Positions 3,181 through 38,235 of a stretch of 41,879 nucleotides of DNA are shown one piece after another (the stretch's first letter is position 1; each line of letters opens with the position of its first letter). The notes under the pieces were generated by a model. That model searched no databases and was not told the DNA's origin. It saw only the letters and a program-made list of their open reading frames with translations. The position numbers and the translations under genes are program-made. The stretch comes from a virus (Duplodnaviria > Caudoviricetes), in IMG/VR virus record IMGVR_UViG_3300020059_000003, positions 1 through 41,879 of that record; one strand, written 5' to 3'.

Positions 3181-3537
3181 ATGGCAAAAGCAAAACAAAC
3201 AAAGACTGCTCCGGAAGCCGCTGATACTTCCAAGGCCCCTGCTGGTGAATCCATCGCCGCAAAGGCGGAACGCAATGCGAATGACCGATTCACTCGCGTA
3301 TTCGGCAAAGACGGCAAAGCAGTTGTGCCGACTGGCAAAGTGCCTCCTCAAGTGGCATGCATCCTCAACGTTCTTGAAGCTGCTGGTCCTGAAGGTCTCA
3401 TGCGCGAAGAGCTGAGCAAGAACCTCAAGGGAGTGCTTGTTACTCGTCAACCTGAAAGTCGCATTGTGACCTATTACCAGAAGCTCATGGTTGAGTCTGG
3501 AGCAGTCACTCGCACTACTGGTGCTCCTGCGGCGTAA
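3181..3537 (+). CDS. putative DNA-binding protein (domain paralogous to C-terminus of 820..1452)
   Basis: Own promoter and terminator; Ala/Lys-rich N-tail; PQ..C..EL..L.TRQ...RI..YY motif. Confidence 0.8.
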   Translation: MAKAKQTKTAPEAADTSKAPAGESIAAKAERNANDRFTRVFGKDGKAVVPTGKVPPQVACILNVLEAAGPEGLMREELSKNLKGVLVTRQPESRIVTYYQKLMVESGAVTRTTGAPAA

Positions 3538-5389: not shown

Positions 5390-5587
5390 ATGAGTATGCA
5401 ACACACACCAGTCAATAGCTCAATGATTCAGTCTGTGGGACATGACCCAGAGACTCTAGTCATGGAAGTCAAGTTCAAAAGCGGAAAAACTTATCCATAT
5501 CAGAATGTTGATGTGGAAGAGTTTGAAGCATTACGAGATGCACCCTCAGTGGGAAAGCATTTCAATGAGTTTTGGAGGGAACGGTGA
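5390..5587 (+). CDS. KTSC domain protein
   Basis: PV.SS.I.SVGHD.....EV.F.SG..Y.Y..V.......L..APS.GK.FN is the KTSC signature. Confidence 0.9.
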   Translation: MSMQHTPVNSSMIQSVGHDPETLVMEVKFKSGKTYPYQNVDVEEFEALRDAPSVGKHFNEFWRER

Positions 5588-6474
5588 ATGCTCGAGGAAA
5601 ATCCGTCGACAAAACTTATCTTTCAGTGGATCAAGCTGAAAAAAGGGGTTTCATACATCGTGACTATCTCGCCCACTGTTTGAGGTGGTCTCATGTATGT
5701 AAATGTCTCTACCAGAAGAAATTATACGAGTCCGCCATCATCCTCGACGTTGGATGCGGACGAGAACTCCCTATGGCAAAGATGCTGTATTCTTCTCGCC
5801 TCATTCCTCGTCACTACTTTGGTGTGGACGTGGGTCCTCATGCGGATCAGGCGTGTCGCGCAATAGGGAATGGTAAGTTCCCACATACTGTGTTCGAGAA
5901 CACGAATCTATTGGAACTGCAAATCAAGGATATTTGTGAGGTGAGTAATCGAGTTCAAGAGTGGGGAAAAGATGTTGCACCCAACATTGTCACTTGCTTT
6001 GAAGTTCTCGAACACGTGGAACCCAAAATGATGATCGCGATGCTCAAGCATCTACGAGCCATAACGTCTGACGACTGTCGATTCTTCTTTAGCACCCCCT
6101 GCTGGAATCGAATTGACTGTGCGGACAATCACGTAAATGAGATGACTTACGAAGCACTTGGTTCTGTATTCGAAAGATGCGGATTTATTATCCAGAACGT
6201 ATATGGAACATTCGCAAGCATTCGAGATTATGAAACGCAACCTTACATGATGCAGTATCAGAAATTATTTCAAGAGCTCCGAGCTTATTACGACTCAAAC
6301 TTTTTGTCCTGCATCTTTGCTCCACTATTCCCAGCTCAAAGCAGAAATTGCCTGTGGGAATTAAAGAAAAACAAAACGGGAGAACCAATTCTCGATGGGA
6401 AGTTCAAACTACTAACAGCACAACCTGAGCCTTGGGGCTCATCAACACTATGGAGGGAAATGTGGCAACCATGA
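5584..6474 (+). CDS. class I SAM-dependent methyltransferase
   Basis: ILDVGCG motif I, YFGVD, CFEVLEHV, FFSTP; GTG start overlapping the KTSC stop. Confidence 0.88.
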   Translation: MNARGKSVDKTYLSVDQAEKRGFIHRDYLAHCLRWSHVCKCLYQKKLYESAIILDVGCGRELPMAKMLYSSRLIPRHYFGVDVGPHADQACRAIGNGKFPHTVFENTNLLELQIKDICEVSNRVQEWGKDVAPNIVTCFEVLEHVEPKMMIAMLKHLRAITSDDCRFFFSTPCWNRIDCADNHVNEMTYEALGSVFERCGFIIQNVYGTFASIRDYETQPYMMQYQKLFQELRAYYDSNFLSCIFAPLFPAQSRNCLWELKKNKTGEPILDGKFKLLTAQPEPWGSSTLWREMWQP

Positions 6475-7004
6475 CTGATAAGCAAGGAATAAAACATAAT
6501 CTTTTAATCTTACGAAGAGATGGTATTCCAGGATTTTTTGTATGCATGTCCGATCAATGTAAAGAACCTATCTCTGTGTATCGTGGAGATATTATTGGAT
6601 GGGAAGAACCAAAAGTAATTCCCAATGTTTTTCAAGATGTAGTAGATTTTCATAAGAAATATGGAATCCAATATGATGGTCCACCGCGTCGTCTTCCTAA
6701 AGATGTCGAAGTGTTTCGTGATGCACGACTTGTGGAAGAACTTGAAGAGATTCAAGATGCGTATGTTCACCAAGATATGACTGGAGTGCTTGATGGATTC
6801 GTTGATCTTATTTACATTGCACTTGGAACATTGCACTTACATGGTTACGATTTCAATGAAGCATGGAAACGTGTTCAGCAAGCAAACATGTCGAAAGAGC
6901 GAGCATCAAACAAAAACCCTGGAAAGTATCAGAAACTGGGGTGCAATCAAGATATTGTAAAACCTTTAGGATGGGTCGCTCCTGATTTGAAAGATTTGGT
7001 ATGA
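6471..7004 (+). CDS. MazG-like / PRA-PH family NTP pyrophosphohydrolase
   Basis: V.DFH..YG, EELEE, D.FVDLIYIALG, V..ANMSK, KP.GW..PDL. Confidence 0.88.
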   Translation: MTDKQGIKHNLLILRRDGIPGFFVCMSDQCKEPISVYRGDIIGWEEPKVIPNVFQDVVDFHKKYGIQYDGPPRRLPKDVEVFRDARLVEELEEIQDAYVHQDMTGVLDGFVDLIYIALGTLHLHGYDFNEAWKRVQQANMSKERASNKNPGKYQKLGCNQDIVKPLGWVAPDLKDLV

Positions 7005-7540
7005 GTCGTTTGTTTATCATCGAAGGTGCAGATTGCACTGGTAAGTCTACCCTTGCACGATACATGTCAAGAACTCTTCAAGCAGCTTATATGCATGCAT
7101 GTGGAAAACAATCTCTCCATACTGCAATGGAAGATTACCACATGAGTATACTTGACAATGTGCGAGTATGCTTGGATAGTAATATCCACGTAATTCTTGA
7201 TCGTCATTGGCCATCCGAATGGTGTTATGGACGAACCCTCAGAATGCATATCTCCGCTGGATACAGATATTCAAATATCTGGGAAAAATTATCTGACATG
7301 GATCCGCATTATGTCTTTTGTTTCAGAAACAATGCACATGATATTCAAGTAAGTTCTCCAGACAACGATCATCCATATTGCAGTTCTGATTATGCACAAG
7401 TGTATGGCGAATATAAAGCACTCTGCACAGACATGGAACTTGGAAAGATATTCGCAATTGATAAGCCACGAATCACTCGACACCAGTTCGAGGAATGGAA
7501 AGATAAGCCAGGTGAGTTTATTGAAAAGGTAATGGTATGA
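7001..7540 (+). CDS. P-loop dNMP kinase-like protein
   Basis: IIEGADCTGKST Walker A and LDRHWPSE (thymidylate-kinase-like DR motif). Confidence 0.85.
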   Translation: MSRLFIIEGADCTGKSTLARYMSRTLQAAYMHACGKQSLHTAMEDYHMSILDNVRVCLDSNIHVILDRHWPSEWCYGRTLRMHISAGYRYSNIWEKLSDMDPHYVFCFRNNAHDIQVSSPDNDHPYCSSDYAQVYGEYKALCTDMELGKIFAIDKPRITRHQFEEWKDKPGEFIEKVMV

Positions 7541-8361
7541 TCTCTGCAAATGATGCTTGGAGAAGGATACTTGATGAAGTTTCTCTTGGAGCAATTGTTA
7601 CTCCACGAGGAATCGAAACTAGGGAACTTCTTGCTTATCAATCCAGGGTTTGGATGGGTTCCCCGTTACTCACTGTGAGTGAAAGAAATTTGAGTTATAG
7701 ATTCGCCGCTGCTGAAGCATTGTGGATTCTTACTGGAGATAATCGACTTGGTCCACTGATCAATCACGCTCCAAGCTATGGTCGATTTTCAGATGATGGT
7801 CGAACTCTCGATGGTGCATATGGTCCTGAAGTTGTAACTCAATTAAGATATGTCGTAGATTGCTTATGTCTAGAATCTCAGACCAGACAAGCCGTTCTTA
7901 CTATATGGAGAAAGAATCCTCGTCCAAGTAAAGATATACCGTGCACAATTTCTATGCAGTTTCTTTTACGAGCAAACTTACTACACTGTGTAGTGAATAT
8001 GCGATCTTCTGATTCGTGGCTTGGATGGCCATACGACATATTCAGTTTCACAATGATCGCATCTTATGTGGGATTGCTTTATACTAAAAACATGAATTGT
8101 CCGATACAACTTGGAATGCTCACACTGAATTCTGGTTCCCAACATATTTATCAAAGTAATTATGAGAAAGTCGCAAAGATCATTAGTCGAGCCACAATGG
8201 AGCGGGATATTTCAACCTATGTATTGACACACCTTAATTCACCCGATCACCTATTGGTATGCCTAGGAAATGTTAGGGATACCCCTAATAAGTCATGTCA
8301 TGTCAAATTCTTTGACGATATGGGAAGTATGGTTTCAATTAAAGAAGGAATTCCAACATGA
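7537..8361 (+). CDS. thymidylate-synthase-fold enzyme, probable dCMP hydroxymethylase/methylase
   Basis: PRG, AYG, TRQA, catalytic DIPC, MRSSD..LGWPYD, SQHIY; Asp at the E. coli ThyA Asn177 position. Confidence 0.85.
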   Translation: MISANDAWRRILDEVSLGAIVTPRGIETRELLAYQSRVWMGSPLLTVSERNLSYRFAAAEALWILTGDNRLGPLINHAPSYGRFSDDGRTLDGAYGPEVVTQLRYVVDCLCLESQTRQAVLTIWRKNPRPSKDIPCTISMQFLLRANLLHCVVNMRSSDSWLGWPYDIFSFTMIASYVGLLYTKNMNCPIQLGMLTLNSGSQHIYQSNYEKVAKIISRATMERDISTYVLTHLNSPDHLLVCLGNVRDTPNKSCHVKFFDDMGSMVSIKEGIPT

Positions 8362-28195: not shown

Positions 28196-28771
28196 CTATA
28201 CATTGAAATCCGGATTACTTCCATACCTAGTTGCAGACGATGCTCCACTCAAAATAGAACTTCCAGCACTAATATACCCAGAGGTTTGTGCATTTCGACC
28301 TTGCATTCCATAGAGACGTGCTTGAGAAACAGACGCTCCTGCTCCAACTCGACCAGTGTAAATTGCTGCTGCAACATCAAGTTCTCCTTGGATACTAGAA
28401 TCCATTAAAACATCAGACGCAGAACCATCTTCAATTGACACTCCAGATTTTGCAAAAGATGCACGTGCTTGTCCAAGCATTGCACGGTTTCGTGTTCGAA
28501 TTCTATCAGCTTCATATTGTGCTTGTTGAGCTTGTGCTTGAGCATTATTGGTTGCAACTTTCGCATTAAAGGAAGCAGCGTCATGTTGTGCTTGACCAGA
28601 GGATACTGCTCCATATGCCCCAACAGCTGCTGATACAATTGCAAGAACAACAAGTGTTGTCGACACATACCACGCCTTGGGGTCCATCGTTATAGGACAC
28701 TGAGTCCGATAAGTTTTGACTATTAGTTTAGCTTGTTGAAGACATCGATTAAATTGTTCCTCATGAGTCAT
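28196..28771 (-). CDS. internal virion protein (gp14-like) with N-terminal leader
   Basis: Hydrophobic AIVSAAVGAYG, A.FNA.VA..NA, G..RA.FA.SGV...GS..DV; start 28771 overlaps the GNAT stop. Confidence 0.85.
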   Translation of the reverse strand: MTHEEQFNRCLQQAKLIVKTYRTQCPITMDPKAWYVSTTLVVLAIVSAAVGAYGAVSSGQAQHDAASFNAKVATNNAQAQAQQAQYEADRIRTRNRAMLGQARASFAKSGVSIEDGSASDVLMDSSIQGELDVAAAIYTGRVGAGASVSQARLYGMQGRNAQTSGYISAGSSILSGASSATRYGSNPDFNV

Positions 28772-29219
28772 TGAGATCCTTAATATACATAGTTTGCAGT
28801 TTTCGATACTCATGAGAAGTATAAAACTTCTCAAGTTTCTCAGGATTCAATTCCTGCATGCAAGACATCGTCATACTGTGAGCACCAACATCACGAGCCC
28901 ATTCCTCAGCTGCGACAAACAACCTTAATCCATCACGACCTCTGTGTTCAGGATCAACAAACCAGAAAGTTTCTTCAGCAAGTGTTCTACCATCCATGAT
29001 TCCAAAAGAAAGTGACATTCCAATAATCCCTGTAATCACTTCATCTTTCTTAGTGACCCACGTTGCTGCAATACCCATTGATAAGCACTTGTTCCACATC
29101 ACTGAAAATGTCTCATGTCTGAAGGATCCTGAAAGACCAGTTTTAGAATAAAACTTTTCACCTAATCGCGCTACTTGCACAACAGTCTGATGATCAAGAA
29201 ATAGTAGTCGTTGTATCAT
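28761..29219 (-). CDS. GNAT acetyltransferase (gp13 position)
   Basis: E.FWFVDPEHRG..G..L....E.WA...G, KFY...Y. Confidence 0.88.
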   Translation of the reverse strand: MIQRLLFLDHQTVVQVARLGEKFYSKTGLSGSFRHETFSVMWNKCLSMGIAATWVTKKDEVITGIIGMSLSFGIMDGRTLAEETFWFVDPEHRGRDGLRLFVAAEEWARDVGAHSMTMSCMQELNPEKLEKFYTSHEYRKLQTMYIKDLNDS

Positions 29220-31645
29220 TCGTTCGTGTTAAGTTGTGGCATCAACGCTGTTACATTCAAAGCAACTGGTTCGTCTTGACTAATGACATAACTTCCACTC
29301 AAACCAAACCCTTGGTCAAGAGTAAATCGAACATCTCCAGTCTTTAGTGCAGTAAAATCGCTTTGATTGATTTTCGTCAAGTGTTGTTCATCTGGTCCAT
29401 GCTTGAAAGGCATCGAATCTTTTAGTCGAGCGGTTAGAACACTAATACGTTTCACTTTACCTTGGGAAGTTCCAGCTTGAGAACCACCTTCAGGGTCAAG
29501 AGTAACTATAGTAGCGGTAGTTTTGTATCCGACATGAACCTTTGAAGCAGCGGTTGTGAGGGTAATGGTTCCTCCTCCAGATACGACCTTAGTTCCAATA
29601 TAAATTCCATCAGCAAGAACTTGAACAGTCTCTCCAACCAAGTGTGTAAGACCCGAGATTGTTGTGGCAGGACTTCCAGAATAGCTCAATCCACAGTCCA
29701 CAAAAAACATACTAGATTGAACTACTCCTGATACATCAGTATCGAAAGCATTCTCAATATATTCAACATAGTGGCATTCTGATCCATTGACAGTTCGTTT
29801 TACCATCAAATAAACATCATCTGGACCAGAAGTAGTAGGAACACAGCAAATAGATTCAACAATTCCAGAACCTCCAATAATGTGTGAACTCCAAGCAACA
29901 ACATCTTGGTCCCGTTCGTATGTCATTGCTGCAAGATTACCATTATTAAGTATCATCCAAACCACAATCACTGGTTCCTTTTGGAAAGTAGAACGAAATC
30001 CACCAGTTCCTCTTCTTAGAATATGTTCAGCAAGAATGTTTAGATCTTTCGATTCAAAAGCATCGATCTGAAAGTTATATGTCATTTCACGAAGTTTGTT
30101 TCCACCACGCTGAAGATAAAGAACTGAAGAACCAATTCTATGCGGACGATGAGTCGATTGAGATCCAAAACTTGTTTGTTCCTTCGTGTCAATGTTCGTT
30201 GGAGTAATGGGTTGATTAAGCGCAGTTGCTTTCATCTGGTGTTCAGCACCTGCAGTTCCAATAAGCATTACTGGTCCACTCTCCATCCAACACAATGGAT
30301 TCGCCTTATTAGAAGCGAGAGTATAATTAACAGCATTATCAGCGACAACCGTCAAATCATCTTCAGTTGGAGCCATGTTCTCATAATCTCCAGATCGAGA
30401 TCCCCAAACAGTTTGTGGTTGTAAAGTAGTTTTTCCAAAAAATAAACGTTGCTCATGAAAAGTATTGATACTTGGCCAGTTTCCAACATACCATCCACCA
30501 TACCTGTGCTCATCAGCTGTTGCATTATTGTAAAGATTATCAGCATTTTCTGGATCAGGAGGTGGAACTTCATCAATAGTCACGCTCACAACAGTGGCTG
30601 AAGTAAAAGCAGTGATAGTTGCTACAACAACATTTACTCCATAAACTAACCGAATTACTCGACCAACATCATTTGTAGTAAATGCAGCTCCAGTGAGAGT
30701 AGCTGTGAGAGTAGCAGAAATGGTTCTAGTGTGTTTTACCATTGTGCTAGTCGGATAGGTATAAGTATACATTGTTGTAACAACAGTAGCAGTCATCCTT
30801 GAAGAACCCACATACCCAGTCAAGTGATACCAAACCCCAGTTGTTGTTGTTCGAATATACTTACCTTTATCTTGTGTAGTAAAGATTCCAGTTAAGTCAG
30901 AATTGATATTTGGACTGGTAAATGAGATTTCAGCAGCTATGTTTGGATCCATTACTGTATCAATCTGATCTACAGTCACCAACTTCGTATTTACAAAAGT
31001 CAAGATTACTCCAAATCTCCATTTCCCATTCTCTTTCCACTCGACATATTTTCCAACATCTCCAGCCGCAAAAACTGCAGCTCCTGATTGAATGAAAAGA
31101 TTTGAAGAATCTGTAATACCAGAAAGTGTCATCCTCGCAACAGAAGAATCAGGAACCAAATACGGTCCATCTGTTGGTGAGTATAGTGAAATAGTCCACG
31201 CAGTATGACTCGTCCGAGTTATCTTTCTAGTTTGATAACTTGGATGCGACACGTAAAGGACATCAGCAGATTGAATAAAGTAAAGCTGATCAAGATCAGC
31301 AGCTGCCCAAGGAGTAGAGATCTCTACTTGAACACCAGATCCAGGAGAAGTTTCTATGTATCCACGATCCTTATACACCCTCATGTATGAGGCACCAAAC
31401 TCTAAAACGTATGTTTGTATGTCCGAAAAAATGAATGATTGAAGTATAGAATGAGCATTACTTAATTTTGCAGCTTTTACGAACCTCGTTCCAGATCGAC
31501 GCCATGCCCCACCTTGGGGTCGAACAATCATGTTTTGAAGTTTTCTTGCTCCATTGAAGTATTTGTTTACATCAACACGACCATACATCAAAGGAGAGAC
31601 TTCTCCACTAGTGAAGTTCGTTTGTATGACATTCGCGCGTGCCAT
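29216..31645 (-). CDS. tail tubular protein B (nozzle, T7 gp12-like)
   Basis: QTNFTSGEVSP...GR.D, QGGA.RR.GT, Y.LEFG, QSADV, FHEQRL.F, AW..H. Confidence 0.93.
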   Translation of the reverse strand: MARANVIQTNFTSGEVSPLMYGRVDVNKYFNGARKLQNMIVRPQGGAWRRSGTRFVKAAKLSNAHSILQSFIFSDIQTYVLEFGASYMRVYKDRGYIETSPGSGVQVEISTPWAAADLDQLYFIQSADVLYVSHPSYQTRKITRTSHTAWTISLYSPTDGPYLVPDSSVARMTLSGITDSSNLFIQSGAAVFAAGDVGKYVEWKENGKWRFGVILTFVNTKLVTVDQIDTVMDPNIAAEISFTSPNINSDLTGIFTTQDKGKYIRTTTTGVWYHLTGYVGSSRMTATVVTTMYTYTYPTSTMVKHTRTISATLTATLTGAAFTTNDVGRVIRLVYGVNVVVATITAFTSATVVSVTIDEVPPPDPENADNLYNNATADEHRYGGWYVGNWPSINTFHEQRLFFGKTTLQPQTVWGSRSGDYENMAPTEDDLTVVADNAVNYTLASNKANPLCWMESGPVMLIGTAGAEHQMKATALNQPITPTNIDTKEQTSFGSQSTHRPHRIGSSVLYLQRGGNKLREMTYNFQIDAFESKDLNILAEHILRRGTGGFRSTFQKEPVIVVWMILNNGNLAAMTYERDQDVVAWSSHIIGGSGIVESICCVPTTSGPDDVYLMVKRTVNGSECHYVEYIENAFDTDVSGVVQSSMFFVDCGLSYSGSPATTISGLTHLVGETVQVLADGIYIGTKVVSGGGTITLTTAASKVHVGYKTTATIVTLDPEGGSQAGTSQGKVKRISVLTARLKDSMPFKHGPDEQHLTKINQSDFTALKTGDVRFTLDQGFGLSGSYVISQDEPVALNVTALMPQLNTNE

Positions 31646-32277
31646 TATGTCTGAGGGTCACGAACAAATCCTTGACTTGGTCCCAATCTCGATCTCATCC
31701 ACACATCATTATCGATTGATAGACCAGGGTTTTCTATGGAGTCCACAAACTTCGCTTTAGATACTGCAGCAAGAAAATCCTTCCACAATTGATCCTTAAG
31801 TGTATTGGATTGCGTAAGTTTATAACTGATTACCCATGCAAGATTAAGAGCAAGACAGTTAAAGAATACTGGATCGAAATCATCAACATCAATAGCATCC
31901 TTCACATACCGAATCCATAATGTGTCAGTGTTAGTAAGAACACACTTTCCTTCAAGTTGCCAATCAGCAAAATTCAATACATCGATACCAGCAGAATCCA
32001 TTACATTTGTAAGACGAAGATAATCAAGTGGAAGGTAAAGACTATAAAGATAATCAAATGAGGGAGCAACTGGATTCTGATCATTTGTGATGGTAAGAAT
32101 CTTCCTTGACATAGCAAAATTCCAAGGATGCATCCTAAGAACTGCTTGACGACAAATATTATAGTTACGACTACAAATCAATCCTTCAGGAGTCGTATCA
32201 GTGATTGCTCCTAGAGTTGAAGTCCCAATCATGTCAAGGGACCGATTCGCCACATCAACTGAAGTTCGCACTGGCAT
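31645..32277 (-). CDS. tail tubular protein A (adaptor, T7 gp11-like)
   Basis: N..L..IG, HPWNFA..R, Y.LP.D.LR, FDP.F...L...LA. Confidence 0.92.
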   Translation of the reverse strand: MPVRTSVDVANRSLDMIGTSTLGAITDTTPEGLICSRNYNICRQAVLRMHPWNFAMSRKILTITNDQNPVAPSFDYLYSLYLPLDYLRLTNVMDSAGIDVLNFADWQLEGKCVLTNTDTLWIRYVKDAIDVDDFDPVFFNCLALNLAWVISYKLTQSNTLKDQLWKDFLAAVSKAKFVDSIENPGLSIDNDVWMRSRLGPSQGFVRDPQT

Positions 32278-32284
32278 AAGTTAA

Positions 32285-32321
32285 CCGCCCCTTGAGGAAC
32301 ACACCAAGACTCAAGGGGCGG
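32285..32321 (-). terminator. strong hairpin after the capsid gene cluster
   Basis: Perfect 12-bp stem CCGCCCCTTGAG/CTCAAGGGGCGG, then TTAACTT on the - strand. Confidence 0.75.
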
Positions 32322-32328
32322 ATGGAAC

Positions 32329-32913
32329 TTAGTCCACTGTATAGGCAATCCAACCCCGAAGAGTTTGAGTGCCGATCGTGGCAGTGGCCGTAGTCACGGT
32401 CACCCACAGCTCCTTTGTAGTTTCATACATGCAACTCAGAGCATAAGTTGCTGCAAGACGGACAATTGCTGTTGTGGTGATGGTTTGAGCAGCCAGCAAG
32501 ATGGCATTATTGTCCGATACAGTCGCACCGACAGTATCGTCAATGAATCCTGTTCCATCTTTGCCCATAAGACCGAATGCGAATGTGGTTGAACCACCAG
32601 AGGCACTCATATGAGCTTCACCACTGATAATACGTGCACCCTTGGGAAGGACACACAATGCTGTATCATCCCCTGCAGCTTCTGAAGCATACACGCGAGT
32701 AAACATAGCAAACCTCATGCGTCCACCAGCCTGATTCGGCTTTAGTGGAGCATAAGCAGATGCAACATTTCTAATCGCTCCAGCTTCAGTTCCATAGGTG
32801 TCGATTGTTGTAGCCGTAGCTTGAGGATCGAAACCCTCAGGAGCTTGGCTCCGATATCCAGAGACAATTGCTCCGGCGATTCCACACAAAAGGAGGAAGT
32901 CTTTTCGTTTCAT
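32329..32913 (-). CDS. capsid decoration/cement-like protein with N-terminal leader
   Basis: GGR.R...F, GD...L..LP.GARI jelly-roll pattern ending in Y..D; downstream of the capsid gene. Confidence 0.75.
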   Translation of the reverse strand: MKRKDFLLLCGIAGAIVSGYRSQAPEGFDPQATATTIDTYGTEAGAIRNVASAYAPLKPNQAGGRMRFAMFTRVYASEAAGDDTALCVLPKGARIISGEAHMSASGGSTTFAFGLMGKDGTGFIDDTVGATVSDNNAILLAAQTITTTAIVRLAATYALSCMYETTKELWVTVTTATATIGTQTLRGWIAYTVD

Positions 32914-32925
32914 AGTTTCTTTCTT

Positions 32926-33207
32926 TTAATGATTTGCAACAACGTCCTCAAGAACTTCATCAGCGGAAATGTCCACTCCGGACAAATTCACGTCAGCATT
33001 CCCAGAGAACAAGTCAAGGAAGTTAATGAGCAAGTTAAAGTTTTCCTGGCTTCCCTCTTGTCGAAACGGAACTACAAATGACCAAGGAACATTGAAGTTG
33101 TAATCCGTCTGTCCACTACGATCAATCGCCTGTGGATTAGGTTGACCAGAATCTCCAGCAACTACTGGAGTAACAGTAACTCGAACTCTTCCAGAAATAA
33201 CAGCCAT
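32926..33207 (-). CDS. hypothetical virion-associated protein
   Basis: 93-aa ORF tightly packed in the capsid operon. Confidence 0.7.
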   Translation of the reverse strand: MAVISGRVRVTVTPVVAGDSGQPNPQAIDRSGQTDYNFNVPWSFVVPFRQEGSQENFNLLINFLDLFSGNADVNLSGVDISADEVLEDVVANH

Positions 33208-33211
33208 ATAG

Positions 33212-33451
33212 TTAAGCAGTTATGTTTGTGATTGCTGTCTCCGCCGTGGTTAGGTTTGTGGCATAACCAAGGTTGAGTTTCGCCAGAAGTCGCAGAGCAA
33301 AAAGCATATGAGCAGGAGTAGTTTGCACAATTCCCACTTTAATGCTCCCCATCGCTGTGATATCAGTGTCAGGAGCTGGTTTGTTGAACGAATGCTCCTC
33401 CACAGTTGTTCCGGAATCAACTCGTTCAAAGGTTACTTTCCACGCATCCAT
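33212..33451 (-). CDS. hypothetical virion-associated protein
   Basis: 79-aa ORF immediately after the capsid gene. Confidence 0.7.
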   Translation of the reverse strand: MDAWKVTFERVDSGTTVEEHSFNKPAPDTDITAMGSIKVGIVQTTPAHMLFALRLLAKLNLGYATNLTTAETAITNITA

Positions 33452-33455
33452 AAGT

Positions 33456-34439
33456 TTAGGCAGTTTCGTCGCATTTCACTCGAAGAACCTTCTCCTCCCA
33501 CATACGAGACGCACCGAAATTCCCACAGGCATACACCTGAATAGAATTACGTTTATCACGACGAGGACCGACATCGACCTTGATTTCCTGGGCAGTTGCA
33601 AGCAGCAAACCTTGACGTTCAAAGAAGATGCACTCACGAATCGAGGATGCGACAGTAAGACGATTCGACTTCACGAATTTGAAACCCATGAATGTATCAA
33701 TCTCACCAGCCACAAGTGCTTTGATTGTGTTGTAATCTGAGTTGGTAACCTCAGTAGTTCGCAACAGACCCTGAATTTGGGAAGGATCAACGATTGCTGC
33801 GAGGTCGAATTGACCTTCAGTCGTTGCTTCCGCTTTGTCCAGGAGATAACGAACTCGACGAAGTTTTCCAATCGTCAAATTGGAATTAGCTGCTGTTCCG
33901 GATTCCACATAATTCACTGCCACTTCAGATGCAGCTGGGAACGTCACTGACGTTGCACCAGTCTTACCTGTGTAAGCAGTTCCAAATGCAGCTTGGATAA
34001 GCACATCATCACATGCACGACCAAGTGCATAGACCGCATTGGTTACGTAGGAAGATGTAGGATCCGCCAACATACGCAATTTGTCTTTGTTATCGATCAA
34101 ATCCGCGAAGTCAAAGTCGCGAAGACCAACACGCCGACGGTCATGTGGAGTGGAGATGAGTGGAGTATCACCATGACGTGTGGTAACTTCCACAGCATCA
34201 ACGGCACCGATACGATCATAGAAATCAAATTCAGCGTGCTGAGTCTCATTTCGAACATACGGACGAATACGAGAACCCATCTGCTGGAACTTGATCTCTA
34301 TATTGGCCTTATACGACTGGACCAACGCAGTATCAACCTGAAAGCTGTTTTGAGGATCGAAACCAATTGGCGCTTCAGCACGATAATCGGCAACAATCCC
34401 TTTAGCAACTTCGAGGAAGTATTGCAAGTAGAGATTCAT
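33456..34439 (-). CDS. major capsid protein (BPP-1/HTVC010P-like) with N-terminal leader
   Basis: SFQV.TA.VQ.Y, QQMGSR.R, RHGDTP, D..DKLR.L.DP.S.Y, TNSDYN.IKALV.G.IDTF.GF.F, GA.R..E..V. Confidence 0.93.
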   Translation of the reverse strand: MNLYLQYFLEVAKGIVADYRAEAPIGFDPQNSFQVDTALVQSYKANIEIKFQQMGSRIRPYVRNETQHAEFDFYDRIGAVDAVEVTTRHGDTPLISTPHDRRRVGLRDFDFADLIDNKDKLRMLADPTSSYVTNAVYALGRACDDVLIQAAFGTAYTGKTGATSVTFPAASEVAVNYVESGTAANSNLTIGKLRRVRYLLDKAEATTEGQFDLAAIVDPSQIQGLLRTTEVTNSDYNTIKALVAGEIDTFMGFKFVKSNRLTVASSIRECIFFERQGLLLATAQEIKVDVGPRRDKRNSIQVYACGNFGASRMWEEKVLRVKCDETA

Positions 34440-34575
34440 ATTAAGTAATTCTGAACTGACTGCTAATCAGCAGAGTTACCCGTCGCCGGACTCGCCTATC
34501 GAACGCGGTCGGTTAGCCGCCTGAGCTTTCCTCAGGAGCAGTTGGACTGCTACGAATAACAGTTATCCAACAAGT
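34440..34575 (-). promoter_or_regulatory. structured 5' leader of the capsid mRNA
   Basis: Hairpins GCAGT/ACTGC, CCTGAG/CTCAGG, GCGG/CCGC, GAGTCC..GGGTAACTC, CTGCT/AGCAG. Confidence 0.6.
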
Positions 34576-34624
34576 CGAGGTCACTCTAATCCAGAGTGAC
34601 CTCGATGTAAACTACTATTTTACT
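34575..34624 (-). promoter_or_regulatory. capsid promoter TTTACA-N17-TAGAGT overlapped by a 13-bp inverted repeat
   Basis: -35 at 34606-34611, -10 at 34583-34588; repeat arms 34575-34587 and 34593-34605; 18-bp box shared with 40458-40475. Confidence 0.7.
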
Positions 34625-34642
34625 GGTGATTTACTTCCCCGC

Positions 34643-34912
34643 TCAGGCAGGTTTCGGTTCATCGTCGATGATCTCAAGCGACTCAGAGGGAAGGAGTACA
34701 AGCTTTCGGAGTTGACCTGCTGGAGCTTCCAAAGCAACAATCACTTGACCATCCTCCTCATTAAAAAGGGATTTACCAATCACTTCTCCAGTTTCCCCAG
34801 CAAGTGTTGCCCGAACACGATCTCCTTTGGAAACCTGTGCATCTGCGGTCTTCTTTTCTTCTGCTGCAGTCTTCTTCTCGGCCGCAGTAGTCTTTACTAT
34901 TGGTTTTGCCAT
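34643..34912 (-). CDS. hypothetical protein, possible KOW/SH3-like fold
   Basis: K/A-rich N-tail, GDRVR.....ETGEV. Confidence 0.7.
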   Translation of the reverse strand: MAKPIVKTTAAEKKTAAEEKKTADAQVSKGDRVRATLAGETGEVIGKSLFNEEDGQVIVALEAPAGQLRKLVLLPSESLEIIDDEPKPA

Positions 34913-34948
34913 ATATGGTATCTTTCTGTTAGGAATTAAGCTTTATGC

Positions 34949-35779
34949 TTACTCCGATTGTTTTCCAGGATAAGCTACCTGGTGCAACCTCAACCAACGT
35001 TCCACAGAGGCTTTGTGTCCAGGATCACTTGGTTTATTAAGTGATGCCTGAAAATCTTTATCAATCGTAAGAGTTGCGATCTCTTGAATCGCCCTTGTTG
35101 AGTTATTGATGTTGAAGTCTGCTCCACCGCCTTTGGCAGTATCTTCAGTAATCATTGTGCCAACCTTCGCAAGCATTCGAATCAACTGAGAGTTGTTACC
35201 CATTCCAGTTGAATCAATATATGCCATGAACTTCTCATCACCAAATTTTCTCACAACTGCCTTTGCAAGATCGACATTTGCATCATATTTGTCACCCCAT
35301 TCAGTTTTCAATTCCGCTTGGGCAGTAGCAACTTCCTGAGCTGACGCAGATGACTGTCCTCTCGCTCCTTCATTCATGACGTTCATATAATACTCCATGA
35401 CACCTCTGGCTTGCTGAGTAGATAATCCCAATTTGTGGAAGTGTCCTTTAACTTTGGTAAGTTTGTCACCATCAAGAGCAAGTCCAGGTTCCATCTTAAT
35501 ATCAGGAACCTCATACTTCTCTGGTAGATCAGGACGACCAGTCTGGGAGTAGAACTCATTCCACTGAGCATCGGTCCATGATTTCTCAGGAATAGGAAGA
35601 CGTTTCGTTCCAATCATTCTCTGGGCATTAAGGTAGTTTTTCCCAAGTGTAGGAACATCAGGAATGTCTTTGAAGACTGATTCCCCACGAATATCCTCAG
35701 GAAGTGTATTGAGGAATGCTGCGTTTGCGGGCGGTGCTCCGCCACCTCCACCAAGAGGATTTGGATCATATAGTATCAT
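34949..35779 (-). CDS. capsid assembly scaffold protein
   Basis: LPED.R, K.Y.NAQ.MIG, GRP..P..Y, GL...QA, L..EWG..YD; between portal and capsid genes. Confidence 0.9.
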   Translation of the reverse strand: MILYDPNPLGGGGGAPPANAAFLNTLPEDIRGESVFKDIPDVPTLGKNYLNAQRMIGTKRLPIPEKSWTDAQWNEFYSQTGRPDLPEKYEVPDIKMEPGLALDGDKLTKVKGHFHKLGLSTQQARGVMEYYMNVMNEGARGQSSASAQEVATAQAELKTEWGDKYDANVDLAKAVVRKFGDEKFMAYIDSTGMGNNSQLIRMLAKVGTMITEDTAKGGGADFNINNSTRAIQEIATLTIDKDFQASLNKPSDPGHKASVERWLRLHQVAYPGKQSE

Positions 35780-36047
35780 CGATATTTCCTTGCTCTAGTT
35801 GTTTTACGAATTCGACATGATCCTTGCTCAAAAAAGCAATGATCGAGAGGACCATTCGTCTAGACCCCTCATTAAGCAACGTCTGGTGCGGATCACCTGC
35901 AACAAATGTCGTGCTCAGCACGAATCCACTTTTTACAAGGTGCCTCAATACCCGCTGTCCATCCGGTGTCTCAAAAATCCTAATGTAAGACGCATGCAAA
36001 TGAATCTTATCTGCAATCTTATCTCGTATGTCTTTTGCAATTTTCAT
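35766..36047 (-). CDS. conserved head-module protein (BPP-1 Bbp19-like)
   Basis: Y...F.T.DG..VL..L, DP..T..NEG.R...L.I. Confidence 0.8.
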   Translation of the reverse strand: MKIAKDIRDKIADKIHLHASYIRIFETPDGQRVLRHLVKSGFVLSTTFVAGDPHQTLLNEGSRRMVLSIIAFLSKDHVEFVKQLEQGNIDDTI

Positions 36048-37666
36048 GAACCAAGTCCTAGCATTCCCCCAGATTTCTGAGCATCAGCAAGGTTCTTCAC
36101 AGCTTTGGAAGCAGGTTCAGCAATCTGCGTCAACTGCTGCACAGCTTGTTGCTTGTTCCTCACATCTCTTAGTTCAGCAATCTCATCAGCACCTCTCAAG
36201 ATGATCCTAGGAGTTCCTCTTGCAATAGCCAATGCCTGCACATATTTATCAAAATCAACAGCATCCATGATTCCAGGGTTTATTTGTAGTAGTGGAATCA
36301 GTTCAGATATGAATCGTCCCATCGCCATTGCTTTCACTCCAGTTTGTGCACGTGATGCTGGAGACATGTATCCTACCTTGAGTCGTTTACCTTGGATAGT
36401 TGCTGGAGCAAGTGGAATCCTTCCATGATTGTTCAATAAGTAATATGATCGCTGAATCATTGGACCAAGTAATTCAGATGCAAGACGACCAAGCATTGGT
36501 GCCATCATGCGAAGTTTCTCCTCACGACGATCAGCAACCTCATACGCTGTCATCTCAACATTCTGCTTCTCCATTTTGATCCAATCAGCATAGAAGCATT
36601 TGTTAATGAATTCGCGTTTTCCATTTGCTTGCTCAAGACCCCATGGAAGATTACCTTCGAATTTCAAAGGCATAGGATCCTCAGTCCCAGCTTCTTTATA
36701 TATGAGTGCTCCAGGAGTAGTCCTAATAGGCAATAGGAATCCCTCATCTTGGATTACGGTTGGAGGATCAACCGCCTTCTGACCGGCTTTCAGAAGAGTC
36801 TTCTCCATTGCATTAAGCATCTTAATGTCAGGTAAGCACTTCTTTGCTGGACTCCGACCATATACCTCACCAGAAAGTTTCGTCCATCTTGGAGTATGGT
36901 AACATAGTGTATCGTATCCGTCCTCACGCAACAGTTCCTTTGTCGTCGTACAAATCCAAACAGAAGCGAACTTCTTATTCAGTTTTGATGGATTCACCGG
37001 ATTACGATCTGTTCGAGGATACACACAATGTAAGACGTCAAATGCTTTATCAGCATTCTTTTCCTTCATGATGTCTGGTGGAAGATCACCAAACTCTTGT
37101 TCCAATTGACGTTTTGTCCAAACAGTCTTTCGATAAATCGTATCGACTCGACCTTCAGCATTCTCGAGCAAGTAGCAGTCACTGATTGGTTTGGAACTGA
37201 AAATCAGATCTTGATTGTTCTGACTCCATTCTTGTCCCATGATCGCTGTTCCAAAGGATCCAATATCAAGGAACACTTCATGGAGTGCAGTGTTCAGCAT
37301 CACGTCCTCACGCTTGTATGAGTCATATATGATGTCTGAGCATCTTTCCAACCACTCAAGAGCATCTGGATCTTGAGTGGCATCAAAGTTCCCCTCAACC
37401 TCCAACTCAAAAAATCGTTCCGCTGGATTAGTAAGATATGAATGCAATGCTGCTGCTAATTGTTCCAGTGCATCTGGTGCGGTGCCATCATACATGAATT
37501 CTGTTCGAAGAGTAACATAAGTCCCAGACATCTTGTGATATCCTACTGAAATCGGACGAACAAGATCCCGAATATCCATCCAATCATTTTCGAATGGAGC
37601 ACGGTCTGATTGCAGTTTCTCATACCGCATAATCAGAAATTGAACTAGTGGAACAGGTTGTGCCAT
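36044..37666 (-). CDS. portal (head-tail connector, T7 gp8-like)
   Basis: YD.TA, L.NPA..FF, FGTA, PRW....GE.YGRSP, MTA.EV..R.EE...L.P...RL..E.L.P. Confidence 0.95.
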   Translation of the reverse strand: MAQPVPLVQFLIMRYEKLQSDRAPFENDWMDIRDLVRPISVGYHKMSGTYVTLRTEFMYDGTAPDALEQLAAALHSYLTNPAERFFELEVEGNFDATQDPDALEWLERCSDIIYDSYKREDVMLNTALHEVFLDIGSFGTAIMGQEWSQNNQDLIFSSKPISDCYLLENAEGRVDTIYRKTVWTKRQLEQEFGDLPPDIMKEKNADKAFDVLHCVYPRTDRNPVNPSKLNKKFASVWICTTTKELLREDGYDTLCYHTPRWTKLSGEVYGRSPAKKCLPDIKMLNAMEKTLLKAGQKAVDPPTVIQDEGFLLPIRTTPGALIYKEAGTEDPMPLKFEGNLPWGLEQANGKREFINKCFYADWIKMEKQNVEMTAYEVADRREEKLRMMAPMLGRLASELLGPMIQRSYYLLNNHGRIPLAPATIQGKRLKVGYMSPASRAQTGVKAMAMGRFISELIPLLQINPGIMDAVDFDKYVQALAIARGTPRIILRGADEIAELRDVRNKQQAVQQLTQIAEPASKAVKNLADAQKSGGMLGLGS

Positions 37667-37667
37667 A

Positions 37668-37940
37668 TTAAGATCCTAGTAAAGATTTCTTCACCACATT
37701 TGGAGTGCTTGTATCTCCCATTCCTCCAGTAAGAATTGTTGAAGCAAATCCCTGTGGTTTACGTTTATTAAGTTGTTCTCGTGCGGCACCAGCAGCATCT
37801 GCAGTGGTAGGTGGAGCAGGTGGCTTTGGCGCACTTGGAGTTCCACCAAAATTAAACACATCGAAGTTCGCAGGACATTCGTCCCGGCGAGACTGAACCA
37901 CCAGATTCGCAACTACCAACCAATAATTCATGTTTCGCAT
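37668..37940 (-). CDS. small virion protein upstream of the portal, with putative N-terminal leader
   Basis: FGG.PSAPKPPAPP, G.ASTILTG, K.LLG ending; alternative GTG start at 37859. Confidence 0.8.
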   Translation of the reverse strand: MRNMNYWLVVANLVVQSRRDECPANFDVFNFGGTPSAPKPPAPPTTADAAGAAREQLNKRKPQGFASTILTGGMGDTSTPNVVKKSLLGS

Positions 37941-38235
37941 ATTTCGTTATCCTCTCAACTGTTTCTGTTCGGTGCCACACCACTGCTGACCGACCCCTCG
38001 CTGCGCGAGCCCAGCCAATATATGGTAATCTATATGGCATTAACGACCAAAATGTCTCAAATCCGACACCAACTGCCAAGCGAATAAACCAACCATCCCC
38101 AACGTGACGAGCAAGTAAAGCATAACTAGGAGTAATATGAGCATGCCCTGTTCGAGCATATTCCTCAAAATCTGAACTAAATGAGAGTTCTGGACAAGTT
38201 TCATAGAGTTCTCGAATTTTCTCATACGTACTCAT
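37852..38235 (-). CDS. hypothetical protein, possibly GNAT-like
   Basis: WFI.LA.G, P..LPYIGW.R pattern; ATGA-coupled to the terminase. Confidence 0.65.
   Translation of the reverse strand: MSTYEKIRELYETCPELSFSSDFEEYARTGHAHITPSYALLARHVGDGWFIRLAVGVGFETFWSLMPYRLPYIGWARAARGRSAVVWHRTETVERITKYAKHELLVGSCESGGSVSPGRMSCELRCV

Follow-up and report, generated by a model that had tools for sequence, protein, structure and literature searches.

The DNA considered here, referred to below as the window, is a stretch of 41,879 nucleotides that represents a single virus record (IMG/VR IMGVR_UViG_3300020059_000003, Caudoviricetes) with the completeness rating "complete". According to profile searches, its minus strand carries a podovirus-type virion module with terminase, portal (PF12236), scaffold, capsid (PF19821), tail tubes and ejection proteins. 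Four proteins of the window, namely the major capsid protein, a decoration-like protein, a gp14-like ejection protein and a small pre-portal protein, begin with a shared N-terminal leader of about 30 residues, which consists of a predicted helix followed by YRx[EQ]APxG[CF]DP[QKVL]-[NA] (Table 1). The positions, the strand and the sequences of the four leaders were correct in a first-pass annotation of this DNA, and the motif ends at residues 30, 31, 32 and 29, respectively. The leader is best explained as a portable propeptide that would be removed by a peptidase of the probable Verrucomicrobiota host, a reading to which we assign a probability of roughly 0.55.

The leader motif stands out clearly from shuffled N-termini. 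When the first 50 residues of 50 window open reading frames (ORFs) are compared, the six pairs among the four leader proteins take ranks 1-6 of 1225, with scores of 63, 48, 41, 39, 34 and 33, and the next-best pair scores 31. The four-way score of 247 is reached in none of 248 shuffles, which were run in two sets of 60 (maximum 120) and 188 (maximum 138). The two weakest pairs (33 and 34), both with the pre-portal protein, do not exceed the mean best chance pair of the shuffles (34). The pre-portal leader thus lacks pairwise significance, but is significant against a profile built outside the window. This hidden Markov model (HMM) comprises 103 leaders, excluding the window proteins and their closest orthologues (9 identifiers), and scores the four leaders at E 4e-13, 9e-12, 6e-10 and 3e-6 among 590 six-frame window segments. 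There is no fifth leader among these segments, the next HMM match having E 4.2.

Table 1. Leaders, leader-bearing proteins and associated genes of the window.
Feature	Position	Strand	Remarks
Major capsid leader, residues 1-31	34347..34439	-	Asn31 at the position of the relatives' start Met
Major capsid protein	33456..34439	-	PF19821 / phrog_3437; 327 residues including leader; most close relatives 296-300 residues
Decoration-like protein leader, residues 1-32	32818..32913	-	15 identical bases in common with the capsid leader
Decoration-like virion protein, 194 residues	32329..32913	-	weak phrog_8455 match; orthologues L001, P0038 and P0049 also leader-bearing
gp14-like ejection protein leader, residues 1-33	28673..28771	-	followed by a Gly/Ala-rich hydrophobic stretch
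gp14-like internal virion protein, 191 residues	28196..28771	-	phrog_418
Small pre-portal protein leader, residues 1-30	37851..37940	-	divergent FDVF-N variant, as in P0080, P0092, P0095, P0096 and P0114
Small pre-portal protein, 90 residues	37668..37940	-	phrog_831
GNAT acetyltransferase	28761..29219	-	stop overlaps the gp14-like start; leaderless relatives have a GNAT too
Minimal GNAT-fold protein, 98-residue core	37852..38235	-	no invariant catalytic residue; family end at the site of the pre-portal ATG
Scaffold-like protein without long leader	34949..35779	-	short LYDPN motif at start; PHROG label 'protease' unsupported

The family profiles start right behind the leader, at residues 31 and 35 (capsid), 34 (gp14-like) and 35 (pre-portal). 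The decoration-like label is weak (phrog_8455, E 0.0011). The concern that some of the genes might be translated from internal starts is mostly answered. In the capsid and decoration-like genes the junction is free of start codons, the next ones being TTG 39 and ATG 66, and initiation at the upstream codon is predicted from the sequence. Met29 of the gp14-like protein, the candidate internal start, is Thr in a 70% identical relative, and the upstream ATG of both small leader genes is preceded by a Shine-Dalgarno-like AAGGA or GAGGA. An assembly error is not the source of the capsid leader, because the independent assemblies P0003 and P0005 carry it with substitutions. The scaffold and the portal of the window do not have the leader. 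The scaffold starts with MILYDPNP ahead of a Gly run, which is not significant against the leader profile, but is possibly a minimal DP-N form of the leader junction.

The same peptide is recovered by degenerate codon patterns in unrelated phage contigs. The pattern scans returned true leaders in 2 of 2, 3 of 4, 13 of 31 (with 2 more originating from the record of the window), 2 of 26 (both known already) and 2 of 7 matches, whereas all 7 matches of a genome pattern scan were due to chance. From 7998 candidates a 16-leader profile picks out 44 proteins. In a set of 1.84 billion representatives it finds 77 at E <= 0.001, of which one is a chance match and 76 are real. An initial homologue search with residues 1-50 found only the query itself (1 of 13 candidates), and a search with the decoration-like protein found no viral locus. 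The pooled set contains 115 leader proteins in register, with 111 distinct leaders; P0108 and P0116, which are outside the locating pattern, were left out. The bodies of 114 leader proteins fall into 36 BLAST groups. Most carriers are of the ejection type, and others are capsids of phrog_3437, phrog_247 and phrog_1328, or decoration-like, pre-portal and scaffold-like proteins; a few may be non-structural. Five other records that were searched whole and gave a clear match contain one leader protein each, and three of these are less than 40% complete.

The bias towards ejection-type carriers, which are internal to the virion as judged from their families, could indicate a docking or packaging tag like the capsid-targeting sequence of phage T4. 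The helix would then bind a part of the procapsid or a host chaperone and load the protein or time its entry, and removal would be secondary or absent. Consistent with this explanation, the leader is longer than a cut site requires, some carriers look like cargo (P0070, P0073, P0082), and in P0051 it has been placed ahead of the original Met of a protein with 53% identity to the early-region protein encoded at 3181-3537 of the window. However, the same peptide is found in phages with unrelated capsids and scaffolds, so that a receptor on the phage side would need to be shared. Moreover, capsid and decoration-like carriers need no loading tag, and the exact replacement of Met by Asn described below points to a cut site. 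A docking tag appears fairly unlikely. As to the proteins themselves, the one encoded at 3181-3537 is small and basic and is kept in relatives, and its homologues P0051 and P0053 have gained the leader. P0070 and P0082 are related leader proteins of 235 residues with a hydrophobic segment and a Cys/Trp-rich tail, and have no family match.

The consensus of the leader is F-x2-C-L-x2-A-x2-I-V-x2-Y-R-A-[EQ]-A-P-E-G-[CF]-D-P-Q, followed by N or A. In the structure model, a single helix (residues 2-23, predicted local distance difference test score 90) ends at YR and is followed by a short tail. R and the first P are found in every one of the 111 distinct leaders (but are fixed by the locating pattern), and D and the second P are present in 109 and 105. 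Residue 32 is the last of the motif in 42 leaders, and in 91 the motif ends at residues 28-37. N follows it in 77 leaders, A in 23, G and C in 4 each, M in 2 and D in 1, and the second residue after it is often T (38) or S (27). In 59 of 110 carriers a hydrophobic 19-mer lies directly behind the leader, as in ejection proteins. Shortened leaders (L001, L007, L168) retain the helix and DPQ, suggesting that one part is for docking and the other for cutting.

At the DNA level, the identity among 16 leaders is 0.69, 0.71 and 0.36 at codon positions 1, 2 and 3, and the same residue is encoded by the same codon in 552 of 1486 pairs. With third codon positions free, it is the peptide that is kept and not the DNA, and we therefore rejected a DNA repeat or RNA element; the window has no Rfam match. 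The longest DNA run common to two leaders is 15 bases for a single pair (capsid and decoration-like) and 7 bases for the others. The 15 identical bases are what would be expected after copying, and together with the observation that close capsid relatives manage without the leader they are compatible with an uncut aid to expression or solubility: the leader would start translation well, form a soluble helix, spread as a DNA cassette and stay on the protein. Against this, near-invariant R, P, D and P in unrelated phages in combination with free third codon positions imply a specific partner, and almost all recognisable carriers are virion proteins, which makes such a passive role very unlikely.

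Database searches did not connect the leader to anything described. The 16 leaders have no relevant match in Pfam, NCBIfam, PHROGs or PDB sequences. One leader, compared with cultured phages, gave two records, both at E 9 and not convincing, and compared with plasmids gave no match. An Atlas search returned nothing for the leader, and its host hints were sub-threshold. The motif was not found in the open-licence PMC and bioRxiv literature (supplements aside), and as far as this literature and the family databases searched go, the leader is undescribed.

Comparison with relatives identifies the leader as an add-on, since it is present on no more than 6 of the 124 close relatives that were retrieved through homology of the capsid body. 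All six leader capsids read DP[QL]-N-S, and the rest have M-S at this place, so that the last residue of the leader, usually Asn, occupies the place of the start Met of the family. None of the 43 (of 80) capsid loci that were translated upstream carries this particular leader on its capsid. The relative L001 has a leaderless capsid (84% identical), and leaders on its decoration-like, gp14-like and, in degenerate form, pre-portal proteins. Among about 90 gp14-like homologues, the leader is present only in the window, L001, L008/L176 and, shortened, L168. The leader has been gained and lost protein by protein. The earlier proposal that it coordinates head assembly is thus too narrow: the main carriers are ejection-type, most of the examined phages show the leader on one protein, and capsids 90-91% identical to the window capsid are called without it, as are scaffold and portal. 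Other short N-terminal extensions occur on the scaffold, pre-portal and decoration proteins of relatives (L001-L027, L152, L168). On scaffolds they read LRAP-EG, LRIPDP-G, LLDPDP, LRDPN or FAD-G, on pre-portal proteins they end RC[CFY]-FGGG-like, and the L016 capsid and the L005 decoration protein have extensions of 20-25 residues of a different kind. The phages of this group seem to swap leaders.

Judged from the sequences, the first-pass suggestion of a cleavable propeptide or docking tag is the reading that the evidence favours, and may be considered partly supported. For a propeptide cut by the host, the following mechanism can be envisaged. The helix face with F, C, L, A, I, V and Y would dock on the enzyme, and the cut would be made at DP[Q]-N. 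It would most likely fall after Asn/Ala, because this restores the Ser/Thr/Ala terminus of the leaderless relatives, which would themselves obtain it through Met removal; a cut before Asn/Ala is a possible alternative. On ejection proteins, presumably its original carriers, the leader would keep the hydrophobic N-terminal stretch covered as long as the protein has not entered the procapsid. The capsid and decoration genes would have acquired the leader cassette later, and probably do not need it for folding. The conservation of one peptide across phages that share no neighbour or enzyme gene suggests that the partner belongs to the host.

A leader could also do without any enzyme, if the peptide cut itself or made the ribosome release the chain. 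Inteins cut at Asn-Ser/Thr at their C-terminal end, and in the leaders Asn follows the motif in 77 of 111 cases and Ser/Thr comes next in 65. Self-processing would be consistent with the failure to find an enzyme or a host counterpart, and with the internal copies in fusions. Yet Asn is missing in 34 of the 111 leaders, and 30 residues are generally small for autoproteolysis. An element independent of the host should also be less confined than this one, which is present in about 4 of 90 gp14-like homologues besides the window and has no convincing match in cultured phages. Self-cutting in this strict sense is very improbable. Distinctly unlikely, but less so, is a self-sufficient processing element that frees the downstream protein, at the start or inside a polyprotein, without a phage enzyme or a host protein that shares the motif. 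It would work by a self-cut at Asn-Ser/Thr or through an undescribed Verrucomicrobiota endopeptidase, and unrelated phages would swap it for clean N-termini, which might be acylated by the coupled GNAT-fold proteins.

Leader genes are coupled to GNAT-type genes in the group of the window and to cupin genes in other phages, and are at times fused to them. The enzymes of RiPPs (peptides made by the ribosome and then altered post-translationally) read leader peptides, and a phage-encoded enzyme, such as a coupled GNAT or cupin, the scaffold or an unrecognised small protease, might likewise read or cut the leader. The structure of the pre-portal neighbour best matches N-terminal acetyltransferases (Z 6.5, root-mean-square deviation 3.4, 89 aligned), with no Foldseek match at E <= 0.001. 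The scaffold matches phrog_458, labelled 'protease', and conserves His115, Glu212 and Asp213. This match qualifies the first-pass statement that no phage protease is recognisable, which otherwise holds, as no peptidase family is present in 48 window ORFs, nor in 32 ORFs from L001 and the second complete phage with the leader. The scaffold is unsupported as a protease, since 53 homologues have no conserved Ser or Cys, and the pre-portal neighbour was rejected in this role in view of its GNAT fold and the lack of an invariant catalytic residue among 13 such neighbours. Also against a phage enzyme, the neighbours represent two unrelated folds, occur in leaderless relatives as well, and are missing beside capsid leaders. 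Compared with two complete genomes that lack this leader, the two complete leader-bearing ones additionally have in common only a lipoprotein-like gene, a tail-fibre stretch and the GNAT-fold gene. A phage enzyme is for these reasons quite improbable. In the window, both small leader genes (gp14-like and pre-portal) are coupled to a GNAT-fold gene. The one next to the pre-portal gene encodes a minimal GNAT of no listed family, overlaps the pre-portal leader with its tail in a different frame, and is fused with the leader protein in L086 and P0086. One idea, prompted by these sequences, is that the coupled GNAT-fold proteins might acylate the N-terminus after leader removal.

If the leader is removed by a host peptidase, an M3 oligopeptidase would be the first candidate, tentatively and as a minority choice among host peptidases. 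OpdA, the host enzyme of the P22 system discussed below, is a member of the M3 family. In prophage G008 the leader is part of a cupin-leader-gp14 fusion and begins at an in-frame ATG, and an M3 oligoendopeptidase gene lies between the ejection genes and the capsid gene, on the same strand and with the GC content of the phage genes (L255:3010-4836, G008:C1:31010-32836; TIGR02290 525 bits, cut-off 562; PF01432 above cut-off). Such genes seldom turn up in records of phages (18 of 50,697, the majority of the ones shown being unannotated). The G008 M3 gene is accompanied, on the opposite strand, by genes for an alpha/beta hydrolase and a membrane protein, and the prophage starts near a tRNA-Ala gene. 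The same prophage carries an AAA ATPase and an S8 peptidase between terminase and portal (L254:12245-13426, L249:75-2906); the peptidase matches IteS weakly (110 bits, cut-off 900), and the pair looks like an Iet-type defence. Prp (PF04327), the host protease of the 80alpha system, is not encoded in the window (0 of 1); the control matched in 3 of 14 genomes. As to the host, P0094, the sole named source of the leader, comes from a Verrucomicrobiaceae genome, and the Thr/Asn-rich lysis-region proteins look Verrucomicrobia-like. The host is probably a member of Verrucomicrobiota. P0094 is also one of three proteins, with P0107 and P0121, in which an in-frame cupin-leader-ejection protein fusion is called (DNA at L249:9395-10771).

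A number of observations weigh against a host-cut propeptide, or at least against parts of the argument for it. None of the 76 real matches among the 1.84 billion representatives looked like a housekeeping protein, although a host match to the ten-residue core of the leader alone would fall below the threshold of E <= 0.001. The host assignment is based on one named genome and weak hints. The M3 family was not found in the window, and the M3 gene is a single case (1 of 5 searched records) that may be a host insert. An internal cut within a fusion would be a poor fit for an M3 oligopeptidase, and the fusions themselves are weak evidence, since L249 has an in-frame ATG at the leader start, as do P0036 and P0086. 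The hydrophobic moment of the helix (0.335, against 0.272 in shuffles) is only modestly in excess. Twelve of the 16 leaders analysed at the DNA level came from patterns that fix codon positions 1-2. Finally, a capsid tree with 40 of the 124 rows needs two changes, a single one being sufficient in 0 of 200 bootstrap trees, and favours two independent capsid gains, but the approximately unbiased test does not reject a single capsid origin (p 0.21).

Two other regions of the window deserve mention. The 122-residue ORF at 419-787 is built of a seven-residue repeat (LRAEGDK type) and predicted to form a coiled coil. At 5572-8361, methyltransferase, MazG-like pyrophosphatase, kinase-like and thymidylate-synthase-like genes follow each other, as they do in relatives, and may serve the synthesis of a modified base.

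Few systems are known in which leaders of phage virion proteins are cut by the host. The present leader is longer, more conserved and found on far more protein families than the P22 or 80alpha leaders, and its spread across unrelated phage groups suggests a single shared partner, which probably belongs to the host. The leader could serve as a bait for finding a new processing enzyme of Verrucomicrobiota, and its sequence as a marker by which uncultured phages may be assigned to Verrucomicrobiota hosts. The natural pairs with and without it (capsids 90% identical) are well suited to ask what such leaders do. If self-cutting, or cutting within fusions, turned out to be true, the leader would also be a compact removable tag.

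For ejection proteins, the P22 system is a closer precedent than Prp. According to the published account, the P22 ejection protein gp7 has a 20-residue leader that is removed by host OpdA and can largely be dispensed with, since deletion of these 20 residues leaves about 60% of the burst (PMC8402733), and its gene directly follows the small partner gene 14 (PMC8402733; NC_002371). The gp14-like gene of the window sits after a GNAT gene, and ejection leader genes elsewhere after cupins, so that in both systems an N-terminal leader on an ejection protein goes along with coupling to a small upstream gene. The differences are the length (20 versus about 30 residues) and the distribution (one protein versus dozens of groups, including capsids). 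Relatedness to the gp7 leader was rejected (score -7.0, shuffled mean -5.9), and the gp14-like protein of the window has no PF25688 match.

In phage 80alpha, the capsid and scaffold leaders are cut F|A by host Prp (C108) at a motif common to ribosomal L27; in that study, the purpose of the leader is described as still unclear, and the motif as present also on capsid and tail proteins of other phages (PMC5744158). The Prp substrate motif is MLxx(D/N)LQ(F/L)F'A(S/H)KK, and Verrucomicrobia are not among the Prp phyla listed in a second study (PMC9405229). As in 80alpha, one leader is found on non-homologous virion proteins ahead of the normal start, and processing would work without a phage protease. 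In contrast to 80alpha, where the leader has 13-14 residues and is also present on the scaffold, the window has a 30-residue helix-plus-DPQ leader that its scaffold lacks, and the search of the 1.84 billion representatives turned up no host protein that bears it. The columns of the leader do not conform to the Prp substrate motif, and motif comparison confirms the first-pass view that the two differ. The capsid leader begins with LYLQYF, a loose look-alike of the Prp motif that is not conserved in other leaders.

In T4, the tag serves to load proteins into the scaffold core, and the phage protease gp21 removes it. It resembles the leader in that it is conserved, portable and located at the N-terminus of diverse internal proteins (PMC3012670). 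In contrast to the T4 system, the leader is not accompanied by a recognisable head protease, is also present on shell proteins, and crosses unrelated phage groups. It belongs to none of the three systems. By analogy, the leader would work like those of the P22 gp7/OpdA and 80alpha/Prp systems, while being unrelated to both in sequence.

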